A DNA stretch of 64,000 bases from sequence record ON210137.1. The stretch is one strand, 5' to 3'. This document shows, in pieces, positions 5,430 to 60,038 of the stretch. Below the pieces are notes generated by a model. The model was not told the DNA's origin. It did not search any database and saw nothing but the letters and a program-made list of their open reading frames with translations. Position numbers and translations under genes: made by a program. This DNA is from Escherichia phage EC150. Numbering within the stretch: position 1 is the stretch's first letter; every line of letters starts with the position of its first letter.

Positions 5430-5962
5430 TGGGCGGCTTTTGGCGTAAAGCTAAATACTCTAAAGACTTGCATTACTTCTTGGATAATGAAGGCATAAGT
5501 ATATGTGGTAGGTACAGAAGGGATAATGAATCAGCGTCGCAAAGTAATAAGGCTGAATGGTTACTCAAGGAAGAATGCAAAGTTTGCCGCAAACGTTTTT
5601 GTGACAAAACTAGCATAACTGATTACATAAAGGAGCTTAGAAAAAGATGTAAAAGCCCGCAAGAGTTTGCCATAGCTCTTTGGGATGATCACCCTGAGTT
5701 GAGAAGCGAATGGTTAAAGACTGATGCAATCAATTATATCTTCAAATCGAAATACAGGACGACAGCAAGATATAAAATGGATGAAGCAGTAATTCAGAAG
5801 GTATTTTCTTATTGGAGGGATACAGTCGATATTGTGAAAATAAAGAAATACCAAAACGAAGTGCTGCTGGAATTGGAGAGGATTGGCTATAAAGTCACCA
5901 ATAAAATGATAAAAGAAGAAATAAAAAGGAGAACGGAAAAGGGACTGATGCCTAAGATATAG
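5426..5962 (+). CDS. hypothetical basic Cys-containing protein (178 aa)
   Basis: AT-rich coding region whose composition differs from neighbours; no recognisable domain. Confidence 0.45.
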   Translation: MMGGFWRKAKYSKDLHYFLDNEGISICGRYRRDNESASQSNKAEWLLKEECKVCRKRFCDKTSITDYIKELRKRCKSPQEFAIALWDDHPELRSEWLKTDAINYIFKSKYRTTARYKMDEAVIQKVFSYWRDTVDIVKIKKYQNEVLLELERIGYKVTNKMIKEEIKRRTEKGLMPKI

Positions 5963-45094: not shown

Positions 45095-46072
45095 TTAAAA
45101 ATACTCCATATCGGTAATATCACGGAAGCATTTATACAAGGCAGAGCGCGGCACGTCAACGATGCCAAAGTTGAAGAATTTATATGTCAGATACTTGTTG
45201 CGATAATTCTCGCGATTCTCCCAAAGCATTTTTCTCTCTGCCATAGGCATTGAACCAGCGGATACGCGGAAAGGAATCATTTCACCTTTCTCATCAACAT
45301 ATTTTGGATTGACAACCACAAATGATCCAAGGTATCCTTTTGCAACTAAGCCTTCAGCCTCTTTCGAACGCTTAGTGCGACCCAACTCATCAATGAATGC
45401 TTCGTTGTTATTCTCCATCATCTCAACGAAGTCTATGATCAGACCTTCTTCATCGGTCCACGGCTTGTCCTTCCACACATCACGTGACTTTGGCGTCGCG
45501 CGGCCATGCTTGTATTTGCCCGTCCAAGACTTGCCATACAAGCCTTCATAGCCAAGCTGGTCTGCTTCGATTTGCATCGCCGCGTACTGTTCCATATTTT
45601 CGATGTTTCGATATTCGAGAGCGCGAAGGAATGGGCGTCGACCATGGTTGAGGAGGTGCTGATTGACTTCAGCAACTCTAGCGCGATAGTTTGCATAACG
45701 CTTTTCAAAAGGCAAATCAGGGTCGCTGAAGTCATCAAACACCCACCATGTAAAGTTAGTGATTGCATCAGTGTTCATGCATGCAGTATAGGCCTGTTGC
45801 ATGACGTTCTTGTCGTTCGGATTACCGTCAATTAGCTCTCCATCAAGTCCGTGAATCAATTCACCCAAGAATAGGAACTCTTTTTTGATTTGAATATTGC
45901 GCAGCGCCATGCCGGACGTGCCCATTGGCAAGTTGTCATACGCCATCGCGCGTATGCCATCGACCTTGAAGGATAATCCGCAAGGCAGCGGCACATCTTC
46001 GCCGCGCTCGATGATTTGTTTACGCTGACAGCCTTTCATTGGTTTTAATGCTTTGATTTCTCCTGCCATCAC
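45095..46072 (-). CDS. ATP-dependent DNA ligase (nucleotidyltransferase superfamily)
   Basis: 325 aa; adenylation motif I KxDGxR present as SFKVDGIRA. Confidence 0.65.
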   Translation of the reverse strand: MMAGEIKALKPMKGCQRKQIIERGEDVPLPCGLSFKVDGIRAMAYDNLPMGTSGMALRNIQIKKEFLFLGELIHGLDGELIDGNPNDKNVMQQAYTACMNTDAITNFTWWVFDDFSDPDLPFEKRYANYRARVAEVNQHLLNHGRRPFLRALEYRNIENMEQYAAMQIEADQLGYEGLYGKSWTGKYKHGRATPKSRDVWKDKPWTDEEGLIIDFVEMMENNNEAFIDELGRTKRSKEAEGLVAKGYLGSFVVVNPKYVDEKGEMIPFRVSAGSMPMAERKMLWENRENYRNKYLTYKFFNFGIVDVPRSALYKCFRDITDMEYF

Positions 46073-46662
46073 TCAAACTCCTTATTCATCACTTGTTCCA
46101 GCGCATAGGCATAAGCCTGATCAGTCGATTTGATAAACGTTCCGTTGTACATCACACCTTTACGGTCCTTGATGTCTTCATAGGCGGCTTGAGCGCAATC
46201 AGACAGTCGAAGTCCATAATCATGTGCTACGCCGGAAAGATAATCGACTGCGCCCATGATGGTGACATCAATATCCATACTTTGATTTTTAGCAATGGCG
46301 TCACCAAGCCGTCCAAGAGTCTTTGCCAAGCGAAGGATAAACGAGTGAGGGTGAGCGCCTTTGTCAGCGCAACCGCCGCCGTTGATGTCTTCGATTTTTG
46401 CACCGTTTTGCGCGGCAAGAATAGTTAACACAACAAGGCAATCGCCGATGTCATCCTTGATTGCGGATTGTAAATCACAGATGGCCTGCTCTGTATATCC
46501 GATTTCAGGGTCAAAGAACACAAGGTCATGTAATTGATCAACGTGGTCGGTCAACTCCCCAAACTCGCTAATAAGCTTCGGGTATTGGTCCTTAAGGTCG
46601 CAGCCTTGGATGATGTTACGTTCAGAAGCCCACTGGCGAATGTTTGCATAAATCTGGTTCAT
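46069..46662 (-). CDS. mazG: MazG-like nucleoside triphosphate pyrophosphohydrolase
   Basis: KLISEFGELTDHV and DIGDCLVVL motifs of the all-alpha NTP-PPase fold. Confidence 0.7.
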   Translation of the reverse strand: MNQIYANIRQWASERNIIQGCDLKDQYPKLISEFGELTDHVDQLHDLVFFDPEIGYTEQAICDLQSAIKDDIGDCLVVLTILAAQNGAKIEDINGGGCADKGAHPHSFILRLAKTLGRLGDAIAKNQSMDIDVTIMGAVDYLSGVAHDYGLRLSDCAQAAYEDIKDRKGVMYNGTFIKSTDQAYAYALEQVMNKEFE

Positions 46663-49046: not shown

Positions 49047-50570
49047 TTAATTCATCTTTTTGCCGTCGAGGATGTGATCAGCAAGCATAGATTTCATGCT
49101 CAGTGAACGCTGAATTTCTTCGTCGATGGTATCAACGCCAATAAAATCAACATACAACACGCTTGATTTGGTGCCGATGCGGTGATTTCGGTCTTCGGAT
49201 TGTTTGCGCAGCTCGTTGTCGTAGTTGCAAGAATAATAAATTGCCAAGTCAGCGGCGGTAAGCGTGATTCCGATGCCTGCCGCTGCAGCGTGACAAACCA
49301 AGACTTGCGTTCCACCGTTCTCGACTGTGTTTTTCTGGAAGTCATCAATCAAGAACTCGCGCTGCTCTTTTGACGTCTCACCGTTATATACACCAGTGAC
49401 CACGCCTTCAGACTCAAGCCAATCCTTAATCTGGTTCATCTCTTCCTTAAAGATGGCCCAAACGATGAATTTGCGCTCTGGGTCGTCTTCCAGCACCCCT
49501 TCCACATAATCCTTAAAGGCCGTGAATCGTGGGTTGTCTTCCATGTAAACCATCTCATCATACACCTTAACAAAGCCTGATGTCACCTGCTTCATCTTAG
49601 TGCGCGACGCGATCATCTCAAACTTGACGTTTTCTTCTTCGCCCTTGTATTCCATCAAATAGTTGTACTCATTCTTGAGTTCATCGTAAACATCACGTTG
49701 TTTAGGCGACAACTCGAAGTCAATAAACTTGTACACCTTCTCTGGAAGGTCAGGCAAGTATTCTGCTTTTGTTGCACGAAAATAGTGCGGTTCCATCAGC
49801 CGGATAAGCTTGTCAAGGTTTTTGTACATCGGTCGGCCAAACTGGTCTTTGCGCGGCACTTGCGGAATCCCATAGCCATTGCCGCCGATTTTCTTGAGGA
49901 TGGCTTGCATCTCTGGGTCGTGCGCTTCAAGCAGCACTGTAAATTCAGAGTTAAAGGCACGGAATGATTTAGTGCCGAGCAATCCTGCTTCAAGGAAGTG
50001 GTATTGCATGTAAATATCCGCAGGCGAGCGCGGCAACGGCGTGCCAGAAAGGATTCGACGGGCCTTTGCCAGCCGTCCCAATTCCACAACCTTGATGGAG
50101 CGTTTGGCTGTGTTATTCTTGATGCGCGTTGATTCGTCGATGATCATCAGGCAGCGGTACTTCTTCAAGACCGACTCGATGTGTTGATAACCGACTGGTG
50201 TGTTGACAGTGTCGATGTTGAATGAGAAGATGCGCGCAGGCACTTCGCCTTCGGGGTAGTGATCAGCAAACATCTTCTCCCAAAGCGCCTTGCCCTTTTT
50301 AGTTTTCATCTTATCGTTGCCGCGCCAGTAGTGTCCAATCCACTTGATGGAAAGGTGCTCTGGTGCTTCACGACGAATCCAGTTTGAGTGGACACCGTTT
50401 GGAGCGATGACGACCATGGCATCGAACGCGCCAGCGGCGAAGTGCTTTTCAAACTCTGCCAAAGCGGTCCAAGTTTTACCAAGACCCTGTTCCATGAAAT
50501 AGGCAAAGTATTTTCTGCGGCCTGCTTTATCAAGCGCCAGAAGCTGGTGGCGCATCCCTTGTGTTTTCAT
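49047..50570 (-). CDS. SNF2/RAD54-family helicase
   Basis: Walker A GLGKT, DExx box IIDESTRIKN, C-terminal helicase domain. Confidence 0.8.
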   Translation of the reverse strand: MKTQGMRHQLLALDKAGRRKYFAYFMEQGLGKTWTALAEFEKHFAAGAFDAMVVIAPNGVHSNWIRREAPEHLSIKWIGHYWRGNDKMKTKKGKALWEKMFADHYPEGEVPARIFSFNIDTVNTPVGYQHIESVLKKYRCLMIIDESTRIKNNTAKRSIKVVELGRLAKARRILSGTPLPRSPADIYMQYHFLEAGLLGTKSFRAFNSEFTVLLEAHDPEMQAILKKIGGNGYGIPQVPRKDQFGRPMYKNLDKLIRLMEPHYFRATKAEYLPDLPEKVYKFIDFELSPKQRDVYDELKNEYNYLMEYKGEEENVKFEMIASRTKMKQVTSGFVKVYDEMVYMEDNPRFTAFKDYVEGVLEDDPERKFIVWAIFKEEMNQIKDWLESEGVVTGVYNGETSKEQREFLIDDFQKNTVENGGTQVLVCHAAAAGIGITLTAADLAIYYSCNYDNELRKQSEDRNHRIGTKSSVLYVDFIGVDTIDEEIQRSLSMKSMLADHILDGKKMN

Positions 50571-50989
50571 GACAATTCCTCTAAATACTTGATGATGTGG
50601 TGAATAGTTCCCTTCACGATTATCTCACGTTGAACGTCTGCAATATTATAACGCTTTAATTCAATCGAAGGGTGGACTAAATAAAACATCTTCTCAGAAT
50701 CGACTTTAAGCAAAACAAATGATGGGTATTTCCAATCATTCCACGAAGAAAGAAAGCTGCACTGACCTTTCTCAAATGCATTTCTGAAAGGTGCAGTGGT
50801 GGCCCTTGCAGGCCACGATTCAAAGAACTTCATTTCAAGCCAAAAGCCGCGCCCTTTCCGGTTGGTGCCGATTACATCCGGCACACCATCACCCGTCATG
50901 GATTCGATTCTTTGAAGCTTCAATGCTGATTCTGAATGCTTCTTCAGGGGCACAAAAATGTATTTTTGTTCACGGTTGTTTGTTGCCAT
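50567..50989 (-). CDS. VRR-NUC domain nuclease
   Basis: GVPDVIG...GFWLEMK matches PD-(D/E)xK VRR-NUC pattern; start adjusted to internal ATG (MATNN). Confidence 0.6.
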   Translation of the reverse strand: MATNNREQKYIFVPLKKHSESALKLQRIESMTGDGVPDVIGTNRKGRGFWLEMKFFESWPARATTAPFRNAFEKGQCSFLSSWNDWKYPSFVLLKVDSEKMFYLVHPSIELKRYNIADVQREIIVKGTIHHIIKYLEELS

Positions 50990-53873
50990 CTGGATACACC
51001 TGTTTGATAACGTCGACGATGAACATATCAATGCCTTCAAGCTTGCGGCCTTTCATCAGGAAGAATGCACCGTTCCCGACGTACTCTGCAATGTACTTCC
51101 CGTATTTCTGGAACTTCTCTGGGCGAATCCTGAAGCGCATTGGCGAGTCGGTCGAATCGTCCTTGCACATAAGGTCGATGAATTGAGTTTCAAGCTTGTT
51201 TCCATACTGGTCAAATTCTGCGTAGCGGCCATCGGCCTGAAGACCCTTTTTAAGCTTGCCGTGCTTTGTATAAATGCCGCGCTCAAGACGTTTACGGATG
51301 CGTGTTGCTTCGTTCTCGTCTGCCAGCACTTTCTTGGTCAGCTTGCCGATTACTATTGCACGCTCATCATCGCCTACTTCCTTCATCTGGCGTATTGAAG
51401 CGCCGGAAGTGACGCCAATCAGATATGGGTCATTATATGCCCAGCCGAACTTGGTGTGCATCTCTGTAAGGTCGCCGTATTTAACTTCAGCATTGGCCAA
51501 TGCATCCTTCTGCTTTTGCGTTAAGGTTCCGGCTTCACGTGCTTCGATGTACTTCATCGCCTTCACCATTCCGTACCCTTTAGCGTTCATGATGCCGCCG
51601 ATTAGCTTTCCGTTAGCGATGGTCCAGTTCATTGAAGAGTGATCAGGGTCGATTGGCACATAATCCACGCCTTCCTTCGCAAGTTCACGTAATATCGCAA
51701 TCGTCTGGTCTTCGTCCTTAGCAGCGCGTAAGCAAGCAGCGGCAAATTCCAACGGGTAGTGTCGTTTAAGCCACAAGGTCCAGTAGGTTACGACCGCGTA
51801 TGACACGGAGTGTGACTTGTTAAAGCCCCATGACCCGAACGTCGCCATCGCCTGCCAAAGCTTTCTTGCATCCGCTTCCGGTACGCCGTTATTTATTGCG
51901 CCTGCAACGAAGTCTTCGCCAAGCTTGTTAAAGTATTCCTCGCCCTTACGACCTGACATCGCCTTACGCACGGCTGATGTTTTCGCCCAGTCGAATGAAC
52001 CAATCTCTTTAACCACGGCCATGATTTGCTCTTGGTAAAGAAACACGCCGTAAGTCTCTTTTAAGTACGGCTCAAGCTGCGGCACGTCGTACTCAATCGG
52101 CGCACGCCCTGCCGCGCGTTCAATGTATTTCTGGGCCATACCGGATGACAACGGGCCAGGTCGACCAAGTGCTGTCAGGTTATCGATTTTGTTGAAGTTG
52201 TCAACGTGCACAAAGTTGGTTACTGAGCGCACAGCGTCACCTTCAAACTGAAAGATTCCTGACATCTTGTTTTCGTTAAGGATATCAAGGACGCTTTGGT
52301 CATCAAGCTTGATTCCGTATAGCGTTTCAGCATCTATCACGCCAGTATCAGAAATGATTCCGAGGGTGCGAAGACCCAACGCATCAAGCTTCAAAAGGTT
52401 AAGGTATTCGCTGTCAGGCTTATCAATTTGCGCAATCCCTTCCGCCGTTACCGTACAGTAATCAGAGATTGGGTCATTACACACGATGATTCCCGCTGCG
52501 TGAACGCCAGTGTGGGAAGGGTGAATCTCAAGGTCACCCATGCATCGCGCGGCGTCAGGATATTTCGCCACGAACTCTTGGCCCGTGGTCGTTGTTGCAA
52601 AAGTATCCTCCAGGCCGTGACCATAACGGGCGTCACCGGATGAGTATTCAAGCAATGCGTTTTTAATGTTGGCCGTTTCGTGATATCCAATGTTGAACTT
52701 CTTACCAACCTGAGCCATTACTGAGTTGGCCTTAAGCGTGTTGATGTTGCCAAGCTTTGCAACGTTCATTTCGCCATATTTTTCTTTAAGGTAATCAAAC
52801 ACCATATAACGTTTGGTGTCCTCAAAGTCAATATCAATATCAGGGAGGTCGGCGCGGCTTACGTCGATGAATCGGGCAAATAGCAGCTTATACGGGATTG
52901 GGTCAACTTCCGTGATGCCGAGGCAATAACAAACCAGTGAACCAGCCGATGAGCCGCGTGCAGGACCGACAAGCATTTTTGTTTTTGCGAATCGTACAAG
53001 GTCCGCTACTACCAGAAAGTATGAGTCGAAATCTTTCAACTGAATCTGGTGAATTTCTTCGTTGAAGCGGTCCTCATATTCCTGAGTCCATTCTTTGATG
53101 TGACCTGCTTTGAGACGGTACTCCATCCCCTCACGCGCAAGCTTTACCATATCACCAGCAAGGTGAATAATCGGTGCCTTGCGTAATTTCAGGTCAAGTC
53201 CGACTATGCCGTTTGCTATGTCAACAGCATTGGCCGTTGCCTGATTCAGCTCATCTTCCGTCAAGATGCCTTTAAGCTGTTTGCGCAAGTCTTCCGCGTC
53301 AACGATGCAGTGCGGCTTGACCGTGTCGCGCACTTCCCAAGCATAAGCAAAGTCAACGTGCTCAGGTGAAGGCATGTGGTTGTATCCGGTTAAAACCAGC
53401 GGCCTTCCGTTGCTGCGGTGAGCCAACACCTGGCGCTTAGCCAAAAGGAACGATGATGGGTTGACGTCTATATAATCGTAGTCCTCTGGCCGCAGCAGCT
53501 CAACGGCACCGCCACAGAATTTAACGACGCCATCAAGCGCACCGAACTCTTCACGGGTAAGCCCACCGCGCTGCGTTGAAAGTGTTGTAGCGTTGTAAAA
53601 AGATTTTAAGTCAAGGGACAGTATCCAAGCCTTCGGTTTGAATCCCTTTTTCGGGTCCGCATCAGGGTCGATGATTGGAATCTCCATCCCAAACATAGGC
53701 TTAATATCATTTTTCTGGCATTCCTTTTCCCAGCGGACGTGACCCCATGTGTTGTTATCAACTAATGCCGCGACTTCGCAGCCCAACTCTTTGAGCCGTG
53801 CTATAATTTCAGGATGCCGTCCATAAACTTCTTTGAACGTGTAACCGCTGCGAACTCTCAATTGTGGAAACAT
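50970..53873 (-). CDS. dnaE: DNA polymerase III alpha-type (DnaE-like) replicative polymerase
   Basis: 967 aa; GPARGSSAGSLVCYCLGIT, PDIDIDF and YQEQIM motifs; N-terminal PHP-like region lacks the usual His pairs (LRVRS). Confidence 0.9.
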   Translation of the reverse strand: MFPQLRVRSGYTFKEVYGRHPEIIARLKELGCEVAALVDNNTWGHVRWEKECQKNDIKPMFGMEIPIIDPDADPKKGFKPKAWILSLDLKSFYNATTLSTQRGGLTREEFGALDGVVKFCGGAVELLRPEDYDYIDVNPSSFLLAKRQVLAHRSNGRPLVLTGYNHMPSPEHVDFAYAWEVRDTVKPHCIVDAEDLRKQLKGILTEDELNQATANAVDIANGIVGLDLKLRKAPIIHLAGDMVKLAREGMEYRLKAGHIKEWTQEYEDRFNEEIHQIQLKDFDSYFLVVADLVRFAKTKMLVGPARGSSAGSLVCYCLGITEVDPIPYKLLFARFIDVSRADLPDIDIDFEDTKRYMVFDYLKEKYGEMNVAKLGNINTLKANSVMAQVGKKFNIGYHETANIKNALLEYSSGDARYGHGLEDTFATTTTGQEFVAKYPDAARCMGDLEIHPSHTGVHAAGIIVCNDPISDYCTVTAEGIAQIDKPDSEYLNLLKLDALGLRTLGIISDTGVIDAETLYGIKLDDQSVLDILNENKMSGIFQFEGDAVRSVTNFVHVDNFNKIDNLTALGRPGPLSSGMAQKYIERAAGRAPIEYDVPQLEPYLKETYGVFLYQEQIMAVVKEIGSFDWAKTSAVRKAMSGRKGEEYFNKLGEDFVAGAINNGVPEADARKLWQAMATFGSWGFNKSHSVSYAVVTYWTLWLKRHYPLEFAAACLRAAKDEDQTIAILRELAKEGVDYVPIDPDHSSMNWTIANGKLIGGIMNAKGYGMVKAMKYIEAREAGTLTQKQKDALANAEVKYGDLTEMHTKFGWAYNDPYLIGVTSGASIRQMKEVGDDERAIVIGKLTKKVLADENEATRIRKRLERGIYTKHGKLKKGLQADGRYAEFDQYGNKLETQFIDLMCKDDSTDSPMRFRIRPEKFQKYGKYIAEYVGNGAFFLMKGRKLEGIDMFIVDVIKQVYPDGNKQP

Positions 53874-54415
53874 TATTTACTCCAGATGTCATATACGCCA
53901 ATTTGTTGGCAGACTTTGTGCAGTAATATTACGTCGTCTAATGCACGGTGCTTCTGTTCATATTTTCCGAAATATAATTCATACAGCTCTTGAAGCTTAA
54001 CTCTTCGGCCAAAAATAGGCAAGGTTTGCTCAACTGTACATATGTTTATTTCTGGAAAATTAACATCATCAAGCGTAAGTCCTTCGCGCTGTAGTGCATA
54101 ATCAAGAATGTTTTTATCGAACGCATGGTTGTGCGCGATAGTTGCATCAGTCTTCTTGAAGATTTCTTTTAGCTGCGGGACGAAATTGATGAACGGTGGA
54201 TTGCACTCAAGGTCTTCATTAGTTAATCCGGTAATCTTTGTGATGATTTCTTCAATCACAATTTCAGGATTAATTATGAATTCAAACGTTTCAAGAATCT
54301 CTTTGCCGTCTGTCAACAGACCTGCAAATTCAATAGGACGCGGCTGCATCCCAAGCGGCGCTTTCGGGTGCACGGTCAATCCGGTTGTTTCGAAGTCATA
54401 AGGGAGAAATAACAC
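53873..54415 (-). CDS. DnaQ-like 3'-5' exonuclease (DEDDh)
   Basis: Exo motifs YDFETTGL, AHNHAFD and HRALDD. Confidence 0.8.
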   Translation of the reverse strand: MLFLPYDFETTGLTVHPKAPLGMQPRPIEFAGLLTDGKEILETFEFIINPEIVIEEIITKITGLTNEDLECNPPFINFVPQLKEIFKKTDATIAHNHAFDKNILDYALQREGLTLDDVNFPEINICTVEQTLPIFGRRVKLQELYELYFGKYEQKHRALDDVILLHKVCQQIGVYDIWSK

Positions 54416-54426
54416 ATTAGCCTCCT

Positions 54427-54453
54427 ACAAAAAGGCCGCCCATTAGGACGGCC
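54427..54453 (-). terminator. putative terminator after accessory operon
   Basis: Imperfect hairpin GGCCGCC/GGACGGCC preceded on the plus strand by an A-run (U-run in the minus transcript). Confidence 0.35.
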
Positions 54454-54469
54454 ACAGATTCACGATTCG

Positions 54470-55021
54470 TTATACGGTGTACGGAGTACCGTCTTGATTC
54501 AAGCGCACGATAAACTTAAGGTCGACGCCAATAATATCACGCGTGTCAAAGATCACATAGTTGTAGCGACGTTGACCAGCAATGTTAGGATTGGTGTGGG
54601 AGTCGGTGATGACTTCCTGCGCAACCTGAATATGTTCGTTCTTAAAGAACTCACGCCATTCGGCAAGTTCTGCGGCAGTCACGTGCATGCCAAGGTGGCT
54701 AACCTGATTATCGTGCGCATCGATGTATTCAATGTTTTCGTTAATCCAGTTGCAGCCCTTTGTGTAGTCAAGGATTTCAAGCTCAAGAGGCTTACCAGCG
54801 CTGCCATCAGTTCCGTTTCCAGCTTGATAGTTGAAGCGTAAATCAGCTTCGTTGGTGCAATCGCCGCGCTGGCCTTTAAAGTCATCAGATTCAAATACGC
54901 GACCAGTAGCAACAACGTGATCATGGAACCATTCTGTCAGGCCGATTTTAGCCAGGAAATTCTGTGCGCGCTGAGCACCTGGGATTGACAGGGCGATTTG
55001 TTCAATTTTAAAATGTGGCAT
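54470..55021 (-). CDS. VOC/glyoxalase-fold protein
   Basis: FKIEQIALSIPGAQRAQNFLAKIGL and VSHLGMHV fit the two-module pattern of glyoxalase-like proteins. Confidence 0.4.
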   Translation of the reverse strand: MPHFKIEQIALSIPGAQRAQNFLAKIGLTEWFHDHVVATGRVFESDDFKGQRGDCTNEADLRFNYQAGNGTDGSAGKPLELEILDYTKGCNWINENIEYIDAHDNQVSHLGMHVTAAELAEWREFFKNEHIQVAQEVITDSHTNPNIAGQRRYNYVIFDTRDIIGVDLKFIVRLNQDGTPYTV

Positions 55022-55117
55022 TTTGTTTCCTTAATTAAATATTATTGATTAATTACTGTGTTATCTTCGTCCTGTTTCTTTTCAGGAGCGGGTGTGACAA
55101 CTTCAAATGTTCGTGAT

Positions 55118-55801
55118 TTATTTCCCAAATGGAATATCAGTACCAGACATAAAGCGCCATGCGCCCGTAATTAAGATATGGCGAATGAAGTCAGCAATTA
55201 CTTGCGGCTCAGTCTCCAATCCATTCATCAGTGCCTTTTTCTGGTATTCAGCAGCATACTCAGGAGTCCAGCCGCGAGTCGCGCAAACAGCATCTTCAAT
55301 CTGTTTGGACATGCCAGTACCACGTAGCTTGTTAGGACTAATAGAGAATACCGTGATGCCGTATTTAGGCGTAAGCTCGTGAGCCATCTGCTTGCTAATC
55401 ATAAGCGCAGCAGCCTTGGATGCATTATAACACAAGCTGGACGTCATAGGAATGTGCGCAGCGTTAGAAACGATATTGATCACAAAACCTTTGTTGTCGA
55501 TAAGACTTTTCAGCGCGGCTTGAGTCGTGTTAACGAAAGAGAATGCGTTGGTGTGCATAACGCGATTGAACTCTTCGTAGTTAACATCTTCGAACCAGTT
55601 GTTGGAGTTGACGCCAGCGCAGTTGATCAAGCCTTCTACATCATATGGGCTTAAAATTTCTTTCATCTGTTTAGCGTCGCGGACGTCATATCCGTATGCT
55701 GAATCGATGCCAAGCACGTTATGACCGTAAGCGCCAAGGGTGTCAAAAATAGATTTACCAAGACCGGAATTGGAACCTGTTACAACAATTACTTTTTTCA
55801 T
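55118..55801 (-). CDS. short-chain dehydrogenase/reductase (classical SDR)
   Basis: TGSNSGLGK cofactor-binding motif, NCAG, catalytic YNASK. Confidence 0.8.
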   Translation of the reverse strand: MKKVIVVTGSNSGLGKSIFDTLGAYGHNVLGIDSAYGYDVRDAKQMKEILSPYDVEGLINCAGVNSNNWFEDVNYEEFNRVMHTNAFSFVNTTQAALKSLIDNKGFVINIVSNAAHIPMTSSLCYNASKAAALMISKQMAHELTPKYGITVFSISPNKLRGTGMSKQIEDAVCATRGWTPEYAAEYQKKALMNGLETEPQVIADFIRHILITGAWRFMSGTDIPFGK

Positions 55802-55866
55802 TTATTTATCCTTTTTGGACTTCGTTTCGATGAGATAAATATAACTCATCGAAACGCACAAGTAAA

Positions 55867-56739
55867 CTATTTATTGAAATTAATATTATGGGTGTTGACA
55901 AGACGTTCACACATGGCGCTGTAAACACCATCGTCGTGTATTGAGTCTTCGTGCTTCAGGCCGCTGATTGCGAAGCGTGTAAGCTTGACAATCTTAAGCT
56001 CGAACAGATGCCACATGTGGTAGTCTTCCGGCGTTTTCAACGTTACGCCATTAGGGAAAAGCACCTGCATAACCTGGCCTACCATCACAGCGTTATCGCC
56101 ATAGACAGCGTTGCGCTCACGAAAGGTTGCTGCCATTGCATCAAGAATATCGGCGGCAGTTGCCGGAGATTGTTCAACTTCCACAGCCTTAGTCTCTTCT
56201 TGCCCTGTTGCGCTTGGATCAATTGCTAATTGTTGCACCACTTCACCTGCCTTGCAAAGATTAAATGTAAAAGCGATTTTATTTTGAGCAACGGAATTAT
56301 AATACAATGCTTCATCTTGCATCCGCGCGAGTACGTCTTGTCGGTCGTCGAATACGTTGATGATTCGATAATCGCCGTGGCGCAATGCGTGCGATAGCCA
56401 TGCAGATTTCATAATAGTTGATGGACGTTTGTCGCCATAGTCTCTCATCTTGATTGTAAATTCATCAAAAGGAAAAACATTGTCCAGACGTTCAAAAGTC
56501 ACTTGTCTGTATTTTTCTGGCCTTGCAGTCCAATATTCAACCGCCTCACCGCGAAGAGATGCCGACTCTACTGCTGATGCAATGTGAGGATAGAACTGAT
56601 CATAACCAATACCGCTATGATAGTCATCATAGTCTGACAACGGACCTGCCACCTTGATGCGGTCTAAGCGCCAACGGTCATCAAACAGCGTTCCGTCAAG
56701 GTCGAATACGTTTAAGATTTCGCTGTTTTTAATGCTCAT
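55867..56739 (-). CDS. HAD-superfamily phosphatase (T4 Pnk phosphatase-like) fused to an uncharacterised C-terminal domain
   Basis: VFDLDGTLF motif I; later DDRQDVLARM resembles the Pnk phosphatase domain; C-terminal ~140 aa unassigned; 4-nt overlap with upstream ThyX-like gene. Confidence 0.65.
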   Translation of the reverse strand: MSIKNSEILNVFDLDGTLFDDRWRLDRIKVAGPLSDYDDYHSGIGYDQFYPHIASAVESASLRGEAVEYWTARPEKYRQVTFERLDNVFPFDEFTIKMRDYGDKRPSTIMKSAWLSHALRHGDYRIINVFDDRQDVLARMQDEALYYNSVAQNKIAFTFNLCKAGEVVQQLAIDPSATGQEETKAVEVEQSPATAADILDAMAATFRERNAVYGDNAVMVGQVMQVLFPNGVTLKTPEDYHMWHLFELKIVKLTRFAISGLKHEDSIHDDGVYSAMCERLVNTHNINFNK

Positions 56740-57539
56740 CCTTTTGATACTCCATCTTTAGCAACTGGATTGTTGGTGATTGGCATCGCACTCCAAAACT
56801 GGATGCGCAACTCTTCTTGCTGTGACGTGGTATCCATCCAATCACGATACCAAGGGCAATGGGCTTTGCCATGACGAGGAAACGCGCATTTACCCATACC
56901 GATGCATTGCGGCTGTAATAATGGATTTGCCCACGGGTGCACCTTGAGGACTTCCGCAACCATTGCGCGGAATACTTCTTGATACTCGCCTTGAGTGCGC
57001 GTGCACAAGCGGTTTGACGCCATCTGCTGCAGCGTGCGCAAGTTGAACTTTGCCATGATATGCGTTTGCATATTAGAAGGCAACACGGCACGTGCATCTT
57101 GAATCTCTGCGCCAGCCGCGCGAAGCTCTTGATACAAAGCATCGATAGTCGCCATCGCATCATCCCACTTCTCTGCCAGTTCAGCGGCCTTCTCGTCATG
57201 ACGAGTCCATCCCTTTGGATCATCCTCTGGGTAAGTGAATTTAGCAGGACGAATCGCATCAAATGCAGACGACTCCTGAGCGCGGCTGGTGCGTTCTTGA
57301 TATGCGCCTGTGCGTGTGCGTACCATCTGATGGGTCATGTTCTTTGATACATCTGTGATATCAAAGATATAGTCCACAAAGTCAAAAGGCGACTTGATTG
57401 TATCAAGCATGTAGCGCCAATGCTCTTGCTTCTCTGATTCCGTCATCTCAGAGACAGGCTTACCAGTCATGCGCGTGTTCTTTGTTTCCAGCAAAAGGTC
57501 AAGTGCATCTTGGGTGTATCGAATTAATTCAACTTTCAT
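56736..57539 (-). CDS. thyX: flavin-dependent thymidylate synthase (ThyX)-like protein, divergent
   Basis: 267 aa; QMVRTRTGAYQERTSR aligns with the ThyX signature region but His of RHR is Thr; C-terminal TRTQGEYQ...HPW resembles the ThyX SHAQ.E...CPW region. Confidence 0.65.
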   Translation of the reverse strand: MKVELIRYTQDALDLLLETKNTRMTGKPVSEMTESEKQEHWRYMLDTIKSPFDFVDYIFDITDVSKNMTHQMVRTRTGAYQERTSRAQESSAFDAIRPAKFTYPEDDPKGWTRHDEKAAELAEKWDDAMATIDALYQELRAAGAEIQDARAVLPSNMQTHIMAKFNLRTLQQMASNRLCTRTQGEYQEVFRAMVAEVLKVHPWANPLLQPQCIGMGKCAFPRHGKAHCPWYRDWMDTTSQQEELRIQFWSAMPITNNPVAKDGVSKG

Positions 57540-57552
57540 TTTAATTATCCTA

Positions 57553-57999
57553 TTAACGGTAATTCACTAGTTGCTGATCACCAGAGAAGGTGCAATGATA
57601 AACGAATTGTGCGTTATAAAGCAACTGAAAACTTTTCTTTGGTTCATTATTAGAACTCATCGATGTAAAGATTTCTGCACCAGAACGGTTTTCACCAATC
57701 AGATTAATAAAGCCGCCAGTTGAACGAGGCTGGACGAAAGTGAAACGTTGCATCCACGGAGTACGGTTGGCACCTTTCCCTGTGAATCCCTGAATCTGAA
57801 TATTCAGACCTTCTTGCTCGTTCACACCGATGTAAGTGGTAATCTTCGCACCAGTCGTTGCTGCGGTCTTACCGTCCATCGCTTCGCAATCGTAAACAGC
57901 GATTGAATCGGAAGTACGGATGGCAGCTTCAGTCGCTTCCATATACATGGTGCCGAGAATAGCAGTTGCGGCAAGCGCGATTCCAGTGATTCGTTTCAT
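57553..57999 (-). CDS. secreted protein of unknown function (148 aa)
   Basis: Signal-peptide-like N-terminus MKRITGIALAATAILGTMYMEATEA; two Cys in mature part. Confidence 0.5.
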   Translation of the reverse strand: MKRITGIALAATAILGTMYMEATEAAIRTSDSIAVYDCEAMDGKTAATTGAKITTYIGVNEQEGLNIQIQGFTGKGANRTPWMQRFTFVQPRSTGGFINLIGENRSGAEIFTSMSSNNEPKKSFQLLYNAQFVYHCTFSGDQQLVNYR

Positions 58000-58064
58000 T
58001 TCCGTTTCCTCTATGAGTTCTGCTTCAATGATTAAAGTATACGCCCATTGAAGCAGAAAGCAAA

Positions 58065-59060
58065 TTATTTATTAGCAATATAAGCAAATTTTTGATAGTT
58101 ATTTGCTTTGATGAGTTTTTCAACTTCAACAAGGTCATGAGCGACGTCATCAAGCAAAATGTTGCGCCAGGTAGCAAATCGACCGACACTAAACACGTTC
58201 AAATCCATGGTCAGCTGCAGGAGTAGGGCGTGTCGCAAGTCTTTCGGAATGTCGACAATCTTGCCATATTTCTGGTCGACCTTTTCAACTTCTTCAAGAG
58301 CAATGTCACTCCATGAGAGGCCAAAAGCTGTCAACACTTCGTCGACTTCTGCGCGCAGCTTGATGTCACGGTAACGAGTGATGCCGCCAGCGGCTTCAAC
58401 TGCAGCTTCACTCACGCTGACCAAAGGAATTGTTTCAATGATCAGTGTGTCGCCAGTGATTGATGCGCGGTAAGTTCTGACGGAGTAGTCAGGGAAGTAA
58501 ATTGTTTGATACAAATCACACTTACGTTTAATCTTAAAGCGGTAAACGCGAATGTTTGCTTTATCAAATGAGAAATCAAGCTTTTGATCAATCCCAGCCA
58601 GCTTCATCATGACTGGCAGCGGCGACGTGTTGATGATTGGCGTCTCGCTATAGCCGCAAAGAGTATCAACCGGAGTATTAAAGAATATGCGGTCACCCAG
58701 TTTGTCGACAAGCTGATCATAAAAGTCATCAGGCGCAATATAACGTGTTGCAGTCTTAAGCTTCATGATTGAACGGCTGCCAAACTGATTGGTGACCTTC
58801 ATGGAATACATATTGGCAAGGTTGATTGGGCAATGGTCGTGGTAGTAGTTGCCGCGAAAATACACAGCCTTGTCAACTGTCACGGCCTTGAAAGGGATTC
58901 CGGTAATACGGCTTACTTCTTCGCCGCGAAAGCGTAGAAGCGCCTTGTGCTGTTGCGCTCGTTCCCCTGCTTCGTACACAATAGAGTTCGGGAAGTGACA
59001 CGCTGTGATAAGTCCTGCCAGTCCGCCGCCGATAATCATTACAGGTTGTTTCATGTTCAT
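58065..59060 (-). CDS. FAD/NAD(P)-binding oxidoreductase
   Basis: N-terminal Rossmann dinucleotide-binding motif VMIIGGGLAGL; 331 aa. Confidence 0.65.
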   Translation of the reverse strand: MNMKQPVMIIGGGLAGLITACHFPNSIVYEAGERAQQHKALLRFRGEEVSRITGIPFKAVTVDKAVYFRGNYYHDHCPINLANMYSMKVTNQFGSRSIMKLKTATRYIAPDDFYDQLVDKLGDRIFFNTPVDTLCGYSETPIINTSPLPVMMKLAGIDQKLDFSFDKANIRVYRFKIKRKCDLYQTIYFPDYSVRTYRASITGDTLIIETIPLVSVSEAAVEAAGGITRYRDIKLRAEVDEVLTAFGLSWSDIALEEVEKVDQKYGKIVDIPKDLRHALLLQLTMDLNVFSVGRFATWRNILLDDVAHDLVEVEKLIKANNYQKFAYIANK

Positions 59061-59137
59061 TTGTCCTTTGTGGGTGATATGAGAAGTATAATAGCTAAAT
59101 TATTTTACAGCAACAAGTCATTTTATTTAGTACAGAT

Positions 59138-59165
59138 GAAAAAAGACCCACAACAAGTGTGGGTC
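59138..59165 (-). terminator. rho-independent terminator after Lys/Ala/Glu-rich gene
   Basis: 8-bp stem GACCCACA/TGTGGGTC, 5-nt loop, U-run in the minus-strand transcript. Confidence 0.5.
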
Positions 59166-59192
59166 AATTACCGCTGCATAACCGTCCTAAGG

Positions 59193-60038
59193 TTATTCCG
59201 CTTGATCACCGTCTTCGGCATCTTCGTTGGATTCAACATCGACAAACTCGATGTGACCCATCTCTTCCAGCTTGCTCAGGTAGGAGCGAACTGAAGCGCC
59301 AAACAGTTGATCTTTAACTTTTTCGCCCAGCTCATCGATAGACTGTGCCACGCCAACTTCGCCTTCTTTGATCGCCGCCAGAACGCGTCCACGGGTGGAA
59401 TGCTCTTGCGGCTGACTCAGGCCATTGCCAGTGTAGATGAAGTGAGTAGCTTTTGCACGACGCTGACCATTGGCCTTTTTGGCAGCCTTACGTTCTGCGA
59501 TGGCTTTGCGACGTTCTTCAGCTTCTTGCTTACGCTGTTCTTTCTGCTGTTCTGCAGCTTCTTTCGCCGCAATCTTAGCAGCTTCACGCTCTGCCTTGCG
59601 TTTCGCTTTGGCTTCTTCTTTGGCCTTCTCTTTTTCGGCCTTCGCTGCAGCACGGGCTTGATCACGCTCTGCTTTCTTAGCAGCAGCTTGTTCAGCTTTC
59701 AGGCGCTTGGCTTCTTCTTTAGCCTTTGCCTTTTCGATTTCTTTCGCTGCTTTAGCGGCTTCACGCTCTGCTTTCTTAGCAGCAGCCTTTTCTGCACGCT
59801 CTTTGGCCTTCTTGGCTGCTTCTTCAGCACGCTTCTGAGCCTTCTCATCAGCAGCCTGCTTGCGTTTCAGGGCAGCTTCTTCACGCTTGGCTTGTTTTTC
59901 CTGCTCACGCTTCTGGCGTTTTTCTTCGGCTTCTTTCTTTTTAGCCAGACGTTTTTCTTCAGCCACGCGACGACGTTCTGCTGCAGCTGCTTGTTTTTCT
60001 TCTTTAGATAATACTTTGATTGCTTCGGCCATGTTCAC
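59193..60038 (-). CDS. Lys/Ala/Glu-rich low-complexity protein with acidic C-terminal domain
   Basis: About 190 aa of charged helical repeat (EEKR..KAK.EA...) then a ~90-aa C-terminal domain ending in an acidic tail. Confidence 0.6.
   Translation of the reverse strand: MNMAEAIKVLSKEEKQAAAAERRRVAEEKRLAKKKEAEEKRQKREQEKQAKREEAALKRKQAADEKAQKRAEEAAKKAKERAEKAAAKKAEREAAKAAKEIEKAKAKEEAKRLKAEQAAAKKAERDQARAAAKAEKEKAKEEAKAKRKAEREAAKIAAKEAAEQQKEQRKQEAEERRKAIAERKAAKKANGQRRAKATHFIYTGNGLSQPQEHSTRGRVLAAIKEGEVGVAQSIDELGEKVKDQLFGASVRSYLSKLEEMGHIEFVDVESNEDAEDGDQAE

Follow-up and report, generated by a model that had tools for sequence, protein, structure and literature searches.

The 64,000-nucleotide (nt) stretch of Escherichia phage EC150 analysed here (record ON210137.1; hereafter the window) is DNA of Wifcevirus, a genus of Escherichia coli myoviruses, and carries on its minus strand a block of enzyme genes that runs into a DEDDh exonuclease (Exo) and a DnaE-type polymerase. 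Our comparison across phages shows that the conserved block is an ancient, widespread cassette, not an accessory operon, with the order flavoprotein of the UDP-galactopyranose mutase (UGM)/protoporphyrinogen oxidase (PPO) fold (P1), variant ThyX (ThyXv; P3), HAD phosphatase, DUF6378-like domain (DUF6378L; joined to the phosphatase in the window protein P4), SDR (P5), VOC superfamily candidate (P6), Exo and DnaE. We see an even chance that this conserved cassette builds a sugar-type hypermodified thymidine in phage DNA. The first-pass annotation had held nucleotide-pool remodelling, DNA-base modification and a small-molecule pathway side by side; DNA-base modification now leads, because Pbunavirus phages F8 and 14-1, with hypermodified thymidine in their DNA, carry the core of the cassette and because Wifcevirus resists most of the restriction-modification systems tested, and the other two are kept as rivals.

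The linkage was surveyed in 80 viral contigs that had been retrieved through VOC alone and were then scanned with profiles from our own alignments. Among the 37 loci with at least 7 kb of sequence upstream of VOC, P1 is present in 36, ThyX, HAD, DUF6378L and SDR are each present in all 37, and the gene order is the same in 36; Exo and then DnaE follow VOC in every one of the 56 loci with at least 4 kb downstream. A single open reading frame (ORF) encodes HAD and DUF6378L in 25 loci and two ORFs do so in 48 (73 loci), which constitutes a Rosetta-stone link between them. Median identity to the window proteins over the 80 loci is 54.5% for VOC, 48% for SDR and 45.7% for ThyX, against 38.7% for DnaE, 38.3% for Exo and 37.4% for P1, and the higher medians of the first three indicate tighter constraint than on the accompanying replicase. 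All 80 loci share a homologous replication module, so the shared order is partly a matter of descent. The linkage singled out in the first-pass annotation is thus very strongly conserved in relatives, whereas its description of the operon as 'accessory' does not fit genes of which two, VOC and SDR, are more conserved than DnaE, in a block that is syntenic with Exo-DnaE everywhere.

Concatenated tblastn searches extended this distribution and always placed the cassette genes beside Exo-DnaE. P1, ThyX and the HAD fusion occur together in approximately 290 Pbunavirus genomes and in a Rhizobium phage, and all genes but P2, a small protein encoded between P1 and ThyXv in the window, occur in Serratia, Xylella and Xanthomonas phages. 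SDR and VOC are absent from Pbunavirus and present in Wifcevirus, Myosmarvirus, Carpasinavirus and many uncultured lineages, and the flavoprotein and ThyX genes are translationally coupled in several lineages. Within Wifcevirus, positions 54400–59200 share 93–97% identity with 28 genomes, including vB_EcoM_WFH, ECML-117, FEC19, Mansfield and BASEL Bas98-101. P2 was found by tblastn only in 28 Wifcevirus records, at an identity of at least 95.9%, and its slot in relatives holds other small ORFs; the six-gene unit first proposed therefore reduces to five genes that form the conserved block, with P2 a Wifcevirus-only insert in a variable slot. The signal peptide that had been assigned to P2 is still predicted to be of the Sec type, its N terminus (MKRITGIALAATAILGT...) resembling such a peptide as judged by inspection alone, and the protein has no Pfam, PHROG or NCBIfam match.

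In 24 of the 80 loci, the ThyX and HAD genes are separated by a DenV-like ORF (positions 5754–6239 in L008 and 23 cases among L016–L095). The one scanned, from L008, scores 24.7 bits with the Pfam model Pyr_excise (pyrimidine-dimer DNA glycosylase), for which the cut-off is 23, and the ORF is absent from the window and from Pbunavirus, Xylella and Serratia phages.

The connection to DNA modification comes from Pbunavirus, recognised in the BASEL work as a distant relative of Wifcevirus. New thymidine derivatives, of 362 U and 390 U, were discovered in the virion DNA of Pbunavirus F8 and 14-1; they replace about a quarter of T, at TG, and their discoverers read one as a tetrose sugar-alcohol derivative, the other as a cyclised aldopentose derivative, in phages without known hypermodification genes (Yee et al., bioRxiv 2025.03.31.646159). 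That paper mentions neither thymidylate nor ThyX, and we found no gene assignment in later papers citing it. By simple arithmetic, joining 5-hydroxymethyldeoxyuridine (5-hmdU, 258) to a pentose (150) with loss of water (18) gives 390, and joining it to a tetritol (122) in the same manner gives 362. P1, ThyXv and HAD-DUF6378L are found in F8 as well as in 14-1, in the order seen in the window and beside Exo-DnaE. Between these two phages, P1, ThyXv, Exo, DnaE and Dda are 94–99% identical, and HAD-DUF6378L and the small ORFs are the most divergent of the region: HAD-DUF6378L reaches 80.8% identity and differs by a 16-residue acidic-repeat indel in its linker, and the small ORFs are 78–89% identical, four of six at 78–83%. 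This divergence, between phages with different adducts, is a lead and not evidence.

For Wifcevirus, the BASEL work reports resistance to nearly all tested restriction systems (EcoP1_I being the exception) with no known protection mechanism, insensitivity to all tested defence systems and a latent period of 3–5 min. Avoidance of recognition sites was rejected as the cause of the resistance, the EcoRI, EcoRV and EcoKI sites being reduced yet present: the window keeps 12, 8 and 5 of them, respectively.

The central enzyme of the cassette, P3, had been called a divergent ThyX-fold protein, and the profile searches agree. It matches Pfam Thy1 over profile positions 2–191 of 191 (1.3e-30; 107.1 bits, cut-off 24.8) and phrog_85, 'thymidylate synthase', at 4.8e-38, and with 83.1 bits stays under the equivalog cut-off of 87.9 for TIGR02170. 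At the level of the alignment, the Arg and Gln positions that bind dUMP and FAD are retained: Q71, R74, R76, R86, R150 and R177 of the window protein are invariant across variant and canonical sequences and are equivalent to Q75, R78, R80, R90, R147 and R174 of TM0449, the canonical ThyX of Thermotoga maritima, with which the variant shares fold and family. Three histidines are replaced, H53 by Ile, H59 by Phe and H79 by Thr (Thermotoga numbering; the H53 position in the alignment was confirmed by the mutant sequence of 4gtf), which turns RHR into RTR, and S88 is replaced by Thr. The ThyX motif RHRxxxxxxxS and the N-terminal GH-S--EH histidines are therefore missing, the window having RTRTGAYQERTS and TIKSPFDF in their places. 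Ile, Phe and Thr occupy the three positions in 49 of 50 distinct cassette ThyX sequences and His in none of the 50, whereas canonical SRV, Bacillus-phage and Thermotoga ThyX retain all three histidines; the ThyX-like proteins of phages Lambo and Sienna share the His-less trait. The cassette gene further differs from canonical ThyX in always being paired with a dedicated flavoprotein and in a Cys-rich C-terminal extension. A cluster of the form C-x5-C-x8-9-C with His residues nearby (window positions 56736–56900; also noted in L012 gp81, L002 and L003) occurs in 22 of the 50 sequences, as well as in actinophage versions of ThyX, and suggests a metal or Fe-S site without counterpart in canonical ThyX.

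P1 is an FAD-binding flavoprotein with a two-domain fold of the UGM/PPO/amine-oxidase type, and a fold test returned the two-domain FAD fold typical of UGM. Its sequence gave no Pfam or NCBIfam match that would place it in GLF, and phmmer and profile searches of the PDB returned no UGM; likeness to solved flavoproteins in these searches stops at the Rossmann motif. Compared with UGM (Glf) and the protoporphyrinogen and amine oxidases, P1 is short (approximately 330 residues, the matched structures having 365–470) and lacks the GG motif after beta-2. P1 belongs to a large, tightly grouped and clearly delimited family of 1140 clusters at 50% identity, which has no Pfam model and in which many Arg, Lys and Tyr residues are invariant.

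P4 is, as the first-pass annotation had it, a Pnk-type HAD phosphatase fused to a further domain. Its N-terminal domain matches Pfam HAD_PNKP (5.4e-8; 33.5 bits, cut-off 27.6) and has a DLDGT motif, in which D13 and D15 are invariant, and a DDR motif. Pfam finds no P-loop kinase domain in the protein, whose C-terminal half is a four-helix bundle, and the label polynucleotide kinase-phosphatase (PNKP) given by GenBank and PHROGs was accordingly rejected. This bundle, of approximately 100 residues, is highly conserved and was predicted with a pLDDT of 91.8. Foldseek matches the model with DUF6378 proteins and one Nmad1 protein (E 0.06–0.2, probability 0.93–1.00), and the sequence appears weakly related to DUF6378 (PF19905), which is matched by 13 of 17 homologs (best 1e-4), not by the window domain itself and, in the stand-alone ortholog of L008, with 24.2 bits, under the cut-off of 27.1. 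MazG or NTP-pyrophosphatase membership, raised by RNxxYGD and KLxRF motifs, was rejected when hhalign gave a probability of 1% against the phage's own MazG. That separate MazG-like pyrophosphatase gene, a homolog of Bas99_0036 at positions 46072–46662 on the minus strand, lies beside DNA ligase and is unrelated to the C-terminal domain of P4.

P5 is the classical SDR that it had been taken for (adh_short 2.6e-31, 109 bits), with TGSNSGLG and YNASK motifs. By inspection, beta-2 ends in an Asp and the Gly motif lacks a basic residue, and P5 is predicted to prefer NAD(H) over NADP. Its best PDB matches are to generic FabG at 1e-12, and the search for a substrate in NCBIfam and the PDB reached no NCBIfam cut-off and showed just this generic FabG-level likeness; the annotated identity, FabG, was rejected, the best FabG models scoring 59–75 bits against cut-offs of 222–298. 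The assignment of P6 to the VOC/glyoxalase fold has indirect support through its relatives and none from the window protein itself, which has no Pfam match and an empty PDB profile search: 8 of 26 homologs match Glyoxalase_4 (best 6.7e-6), and the counterpart in phage Mansfield has an InterPro VOC superfamily annotation. In the PDB, neither single-sequence nor profile searches with P1, P4 and P6 gave a useful match. P6 is the most conserved protein of the block, with 47 invariant columns that include Q8, E80, E82, H109, H113, H142 and D167, in a family of 697 proteins that mostly lack a Pfam call. Mass spectrometry has detected the P5 protein in an ECML-117 lysate and the P6 protein in vB_Eco4M-7.

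Related gene sets stand beside DnaE in distant viruses. In the Microbacterium phage Sparcetus, DnaE is immediately preceded by genes for a Rossmann flavoprotein, a HAD phosphatase, SDR (35% identical to P5), VOC (34% to P6) and DUF6378L (49% over 63 residues); a glycosyltransferase gene comes next after DnaE, and a ThyX-like gene, 8 kb away, also lies downstream. In its congener DannyDe, flavoprotein and ThyX genes overlap by 4 nt and are followed by a hypothetical protein, a MazG-like gene and DnaE; their genus, Krampusvirus, thus has two alternative modules before DnaE. Gordonia phage Lambo combines a flavoprotein, an NT5C-like HAD, an RKNADYGD helical protein, a methyltransferase, SDR, DnaE, MazG and the same ThyX variant. 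The actinophage flavoprotein is present in 126 records, and an hhalign probability of 44% (E 2.4e-4) is no more than suggestive of homology between P1 and this actinophage 'oxidoreductase'. Wyrdviruses of Asgard archaea have a block of dUTPase, ThyX and Nmad1 (DUF1599), which its authors read as dTMP supply (bioRxiv 2021.07.29.453957). There, too, ThyX lies beside a small helical 'nucleotide modification associated' protein, but the archaeal block has a dUTPase and lacks flavoprotein, HAD, SDR and VOC.

How the cassette might work is inferred at every enzymatic step, as is the assignment of the modification to these genes: gene content, folds, synteny and conservation are what we observe, and the modification itself is taken from the Pbunavirus literature. 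ThyXv would bind dUMP, FAD and methylene-tetrahydrofolate as ThyX does and pass the methylene to C5 via the flavin; lacking the three histidines, it would yield, in place of dTMP or alongside it, a product with a hydroxymethyl or methylene at C5, providing the oxidised C5 carbon that other phages (ViI, M6) obtain from ThyA-type dUMP hydroxymethylases. P1, with its UGM fold, would handle the sugar donor, given that in UGM-type chemistry flavin N5 acts on the anomeric carbon of a sugar to open or activate it. The HAD phosphatase with its DUF6378-like partner would take a phosphate off the appended sugar phosphate or a nucleotide intermediate, relatives of this PNKP-type phosphatase acting on nucleic-acid-linked phosphates. 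The NAD-type SDR and the VOC protein, where present, would oxidise, reduce, epimerise or isomerise the sugar into a lineage-specific adduct; because Pbunavirus lacks both, any Wifcevirus adduct should differ. The adduct would shield DNA from restriction, and the tight linkage of the cassette with DnaE and Exo would stem from a common requirement to deal with the altered nucleotide.

On this basis, the set P1, ThyXv, HAD, DUF6378L, SDR and VOC is about equally likely to be, or not to be, a deoxypyrimidine modification cassette co-inherited with Exo-DnaE, and it is probably co-transcribed with this replicase. More tentatively, and short of an even chance, ThyXv might act on dUMP as a flavin-dependent C5-hydroxymethylase or transfer the methylene to an oxygen nucleophile, which would make it the first ThyX-fold enzyme with a non-methyl physiological product; with the flavoprotein, phosphatase, DUF6378 domain, SDR and VOC it might then form an undescribed route to sugar-decorated, base-J-like thymidines. 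In the same tentative reading, that route might have co-evolved with the DnaE/DEDDh replicase and spread over approximately a thousand phage lineages, among them coliphages, therapeutic Pseudomonas phages, marine phages and actinophages.

Known hypermodification systems offer partial precedents. Base J (glucosyl-hydroxymethyluracil) of kinetoplastids is made by JBP dioxygenases that hydroxylate T in DNA, followed by a glycosyltransferase, and phage T4 uses a ThyA-fold hydroxymethylase, a dCTPase and UDP-glucose transferases. A pentosyl-5-hmdU, as the mass of 390 U suggests, would be a base-J-like nucleoside, and T4, too, pairs a one-carbon transferase acting at C5 with hydrolases of the nucleotide pool, but no homolog of either system is annotated in the cassette. 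In phages ViI, M6, PaMx11, SP10 and PhiW-14, a C5 one-carbon unit from methylene-tetrahydrofolate is placed on dUMP and then decorated, and these pathways comprise a ThyA-type dUMP hydroxymethylase, a P-loop 5-hmdU DNA kinase and aGPT-Pplase or amino-acid:DNA transferases (AADT), with amino acids or polyamines as adducts and nuclease protection as the function (Lee et al. 2021, PMC8989533). The logic proposed here is the same, and a flavoprotein takes part in PaMx11 too (PMC8989533), but in the cassette the C5 enzyme is of the ThyX fold, and relatives carry sugars as adducts; Pfam and PHROG searches found no ThyA-type dUMP hydroxymethylase, 5-hmdU DNA kinase or aGPT-Pplase/AADT among the cassette proteins. 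Between the cassette and its Pbunavirus counterpart in F8 and 14-1, P1, ThyXv and HAD-DUF6378L are common to both, and the sugar-like thymidine modification there fits a UGM-fold flavoprotein and a phosphatase; SDR and VOC, by contrast, are found in Wifcevirus alone of the two, and the modification in F8 occurs specifically at TG, EcoRI sites remaining open to cleavage. The cassette may represent a thymidine hypermodification kind of system assembled from different enzyme families, a view that we hold with evenly divided confidence.

Several observations weigh against DNA hypermodification by the cassette. ThyXv scores well on ThyX models and may simply make dTMP, and strict synteny could come with the replication module without one shared pathway. 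The restriction phenotypes do not match, since F8 DNA is cut by EcoRI (bioRxiv 2025.03.31.646159) and Wifcevirus resists EcoRI and EcoRV in vivo (BASEL); modification at a TG motif would not protect EcoRI (GAATTC) or EcoRV (GATATC) sites, so that the Wifcevirus phenotype needs a different motif or another mechanism. Complete TG-specific modification in F8 implies a DNA-level, sequence-reading enzyme, and none that would read TG is recognisable in the Wifcevirus or Pbunavirus cassette. No glycosyltransferase, ThyA-type dUMP hydroxymethylase, 5-hmdU DNA kinase or aGPT-Pplase/AADT is annotated in the 1–50 kb region of ManiWeber. A MazG-type identity of the P4 C-terminal domain also failed against Lambo gp70 (hhalign 7%) and in an empty PDB profile search. 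The phage vB_Eco4M-7 can reportedly be rebooted from DNA assembled in vitro, so modification is not required for infectivity as such, and our literature search found neither restriction digests nor nucleoside data for Wifcevirus.

Ordinary thymidylate and deoxynucleoside triphosphate (dNTP) supply would account for ThyX and perhaps for the phosphatase: a normal ThyX would boost dTTP for fast replication, with HAD and DUF6378L balancing or cleaning the pool. We regard this as unlikely though not remote, together with its corollary that P1, SDR and VOC are auxiliary metabolic genes (for example, for redox support) that leave DNA composition unaffected. The Thy1 (1.3e-30) and phrog_85 (4.8e-38) matches and the retention of all dUMP-binding arginines are what such a role predicts; actinophage HAD counterparts resemble NT5C deoxy-pyrimidine 5'-nucleotidases (E 1.6e-4), dUTPase, RNR, dCMP deaminase or MazG are encoded nearby in some relatives, and the wyrdvirus authors read their dUTPase/ThyX/Nmad1 block in this way (bioRxiv 2021.07.29.453957). 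The latent period of 3–5 min, and the reported rebooting of phage from unmodified assembled DNA, also agree. A phosphatase would, however, be counter-productive in such a pathway, which moreover leaves the uniform loss of three ThyX histidines unexplained and has no role for a flavoprotein, SDR and VOC that are linked in fixed order in essentially all loci, with VOC and SDR more conserved than the polymerase; and Pbunavirus DNA is hypermodified on T with no other candidate genes known. Improbable, in our estimate, is an anti-defence or housekeeping route in which the enzymes convert a host nucleotide-derived molecule and the phage DNA is unchanged, and similarly improbable that its target is an immune signal, a chain-terminating nucleotide analogue or a damaged dNTP from which replication is protected. 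In aromatic catabolism a diol dehydrogenase is followed by an extradiol dioxygenase, the same order as SDR and then VOC. The set does resemble a short catabolic path (phosphatase, NAD-dependent dehydrogenase, VOC, oxidase) with that SDR-VOC order, DhbA-type dehydrogenases are among the better NCBIfam matches of P5, and Wifcevirus is insensitive to all tested defence systems. Yet no homology to a known anti-defence enzyme was found (no PADLOC scan was made), Pbunavirus keeps the rest without SDR and VOC, and the fixed adjacency to ThyX and DnaE together with flavoprotein-ThyX coupling points to deoxypyrimidine metabolism.

The genes might also not be one functional unit at all, being unrelated passengers frozen by vertical inheritance of a compact replication module. 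Common descent can explain the order in 80 loci that were retrieved by one protein and share homologous Exo, DnaE and helicase, and variable slots between P1, ThyX and HAD take unrelated small ORFs; we nevertheless find this very improbable, as the genes persist while DnaE has fallen to approximately 39% identity, HAD and DUF6378L occur both joined (25 loci) and apart (48 loci), the same families occur in a different order in actinophages, and SDR and VOC are lost or kept together. Slighter still is the chance that the block supplies ThyXv with a cofactor, its phosphatase pair, SDR, VOC and flavoprotein producing or regenerating a pterin, folate or flavin; in the model we considered, given the same slight chance, dihydroneopterin triphosphate would undergo dephosphorylation, epimerisation and SDR reduction to tetrahydromonapterin. 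In Thermotoga ThyX, H53 stacks on the folate pterin, and FolX/FolM-type pathways use a pyrophosphatase and a phosphatase together with epimerase and SDR activities. ThyXv lacks that pterin-stacking histidine and the activities of the block map formally onto the FolX/FolM-type pathway, but P5 is predicted to use NAD and pteridine reductases use NADPH, FolM and PTR1 are not among the best NCBIfam matches of P5, DUF6378L showed no pyrophosphatase relationship, there is no GTP cyclohydrolase, and Pbunavirus has the same ThyXv without SDR and VOC. A radical-free route from ribonucleotides to deoxyribonucleotides through SDR, VOC and flavoprotein was dropped for want of any support.

Sugar-type hypermodification of thymidine by the cassette would bring together two puzzles, the unassigned sugar-type thymidine of Pbunavirus and the restriction resistance of Wifcevirus without known protection. 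What results is a short list of candidate genes, which at present carry no labels beyond hypothetical, 'thymidylate synthase', 'PNK' or 'FabG-like'. Both groups share its core, and the additional SDR and VOC genes lead us to expect another adduct in Wifcevirus. If true, this would add a ThyX-based, flavin-rich route to DNA hypermodification, give functions to the P1 family, the DUF6378-like domain and the VOC family, and explain why cassette enzymes outdo the accompanying polymerase in conservation. Pbunavirus phages are widely used in therapy, and the genes would then serve as markers for modified genomes, and hence for END-nuclease sensitivity and restriction resistance, in therapeutic phages.

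The features of the region are collected in Table 1. The layout first described, six co-oriented minus-strand genes between two hairpin/U-tract terminators with a 4-nt overlap of the ThyX and phosphatase genes, was recovered in full; Exo and DnaE, the invariant downstream end of the conserved block, are annotated as the epsilon and alpha subunits of Pol III in Mansfield.

Table 1 Genes and control elements of the cassette region (positions in the window).
Feature	Position	Strand	Details
P1 flavoprotein	58065–59060	−	331 aa
P2 small protein, predicted signal peptide	57553–57999	−	148 aa
P3 variant ThyX (ThyXv)	56736–57539	−	267 aa
P4 HAD phosphatase + DUF6378-like domain	55867–56739	−	290 aa
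P4 N-terminal HAD phosphatase domain, PNKP type	56230–56739	−	
P4 C-terminal DUF6378/Nmad1-like four-helix bundle (DUF6378L)	55867–56172	−	
P5 classical SDR	55118–55801	−	227 aa
P6 VOC superfamily candidate	54470–55021	−	183 aa
DEDDh exonuclease (Exo)	53873–54415	−	RNase_T 9.6e-22; GTG start at 54415
DnaE-type polymerase	50970–53873	−	967-aa ORF
Upstream intrinsic terminator	59138–59165	−	59165–59145 hairpin + T6; 8-bp stem, 5 G-C pairs
Candidate sigma-70-like promoter	59085–59113	−	TTGCTG, 17-nt spacer, TATACT; between upstream terminator and P1
P1/P2 intergenic stem-loop, no U tract	58018–58058	−	13–14 bp, 100% complementary
P4/P5 intergenic stem-loop, no U tract	55823–55856	−	
Downstream intrinsic terminator	54427–54453	−	54453–54434 hairpin + T5; 8-bp stem, 7 G-C pairs

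Terminator-like sites between positions 50000 and 64000 number 16, with 15.8 expected from shuffled sequences; as this count is not above chance, the credibility of the two block terminators rests on rank, position and conservation. They are the top two sites of that interval by rank and, on these three grounds, including conservation throughout the genus, both are real. Three GenBank records annotate the pair as terminators. The upstream hairpin (−14.5 kcal/mol, z −3.0) is invariant in four Wifcevirus genomes and labelled as a terminator in the GenBank records of Mansfield, WFH and WFC, and the transcript of the preceding Lys/Ala/Glu-rich gene ends there. The downstream hairpin (−18.6 kcal/mol, z −2.45) is conserved within Wifcevirus; it had been called the weaker of the two and, with seven of eight pairs G-C and the lower free energy, is instead the stronger. 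The notion of a terminator-bounded unit fared less well. The U tract of the downstream terminator is followed directly by an AGGAGG ribosome-binding site that leads (...UUUUUGUAGGAGGCUAAUGUG) into the GTG start of Exo, and a terminator abutting this site cannot insulate the block from the polymerase genes. Past it there is no promoter room for Exo-DnaE, a minus-strand promoter scan inside P6 found none, and VOC and Exo abut or overlap in other lineages. Exo-DnaE would thus be transcribed through the downstream terminator, which is probably leaky, with Exo-DnaE expression dependent on read-through.

The candidate promoter is the one match in the window, with 0.01 expected by chance, and is invariant among Wifcevirus genomes; its function is inferred from sequence, and its −35 hexamer agrees at just three of six positions. 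The P1/P2 stem-loop (−19.1 kcal/mol, z −4.87) is 100% conserved in six Wifcevirus genomes, and the P4/P5 stem-loop (−22.1 kcal/mol, z −5.74) is conserved in the genus with one variant, G-C to G-U. Both lie in the two 65-nt gaps of the block, are 97–100% conserved across the genus, above the flanking coding DNA, and may be sites of RNA processing, stability or attenuation.

The gap between SDR and VOC (55022–55117) is an insertion hot spot, also seen in L001 (6643–6858) and L004 (39460–39630); Mansfield, ManiWeber and Serratia phage WR01 have an extra ORF of 56–71 residues in it, which the window lacks. Upstream of the block, positions 59193–60038 encode a 281-residue Lys/Ala/Glu-rich protein, called 'TolA' in relatives (phrog_4765, function unknown), whose gene accounts for a local AT skew of −0.36; a protein of similar size takes the same place ahead of P1 in Pbunavirus, Xylella and Serratia phages. 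Over positions 1–64000, GATC is strongly depleted: a first-order Markov model predicts 256 sites, and 104 are present (z −10.6). BamHI sites number 0 against 9.4 expected and EcoRI sites are halved, and HindIII, CAGCAG and GAAGA are enriched.

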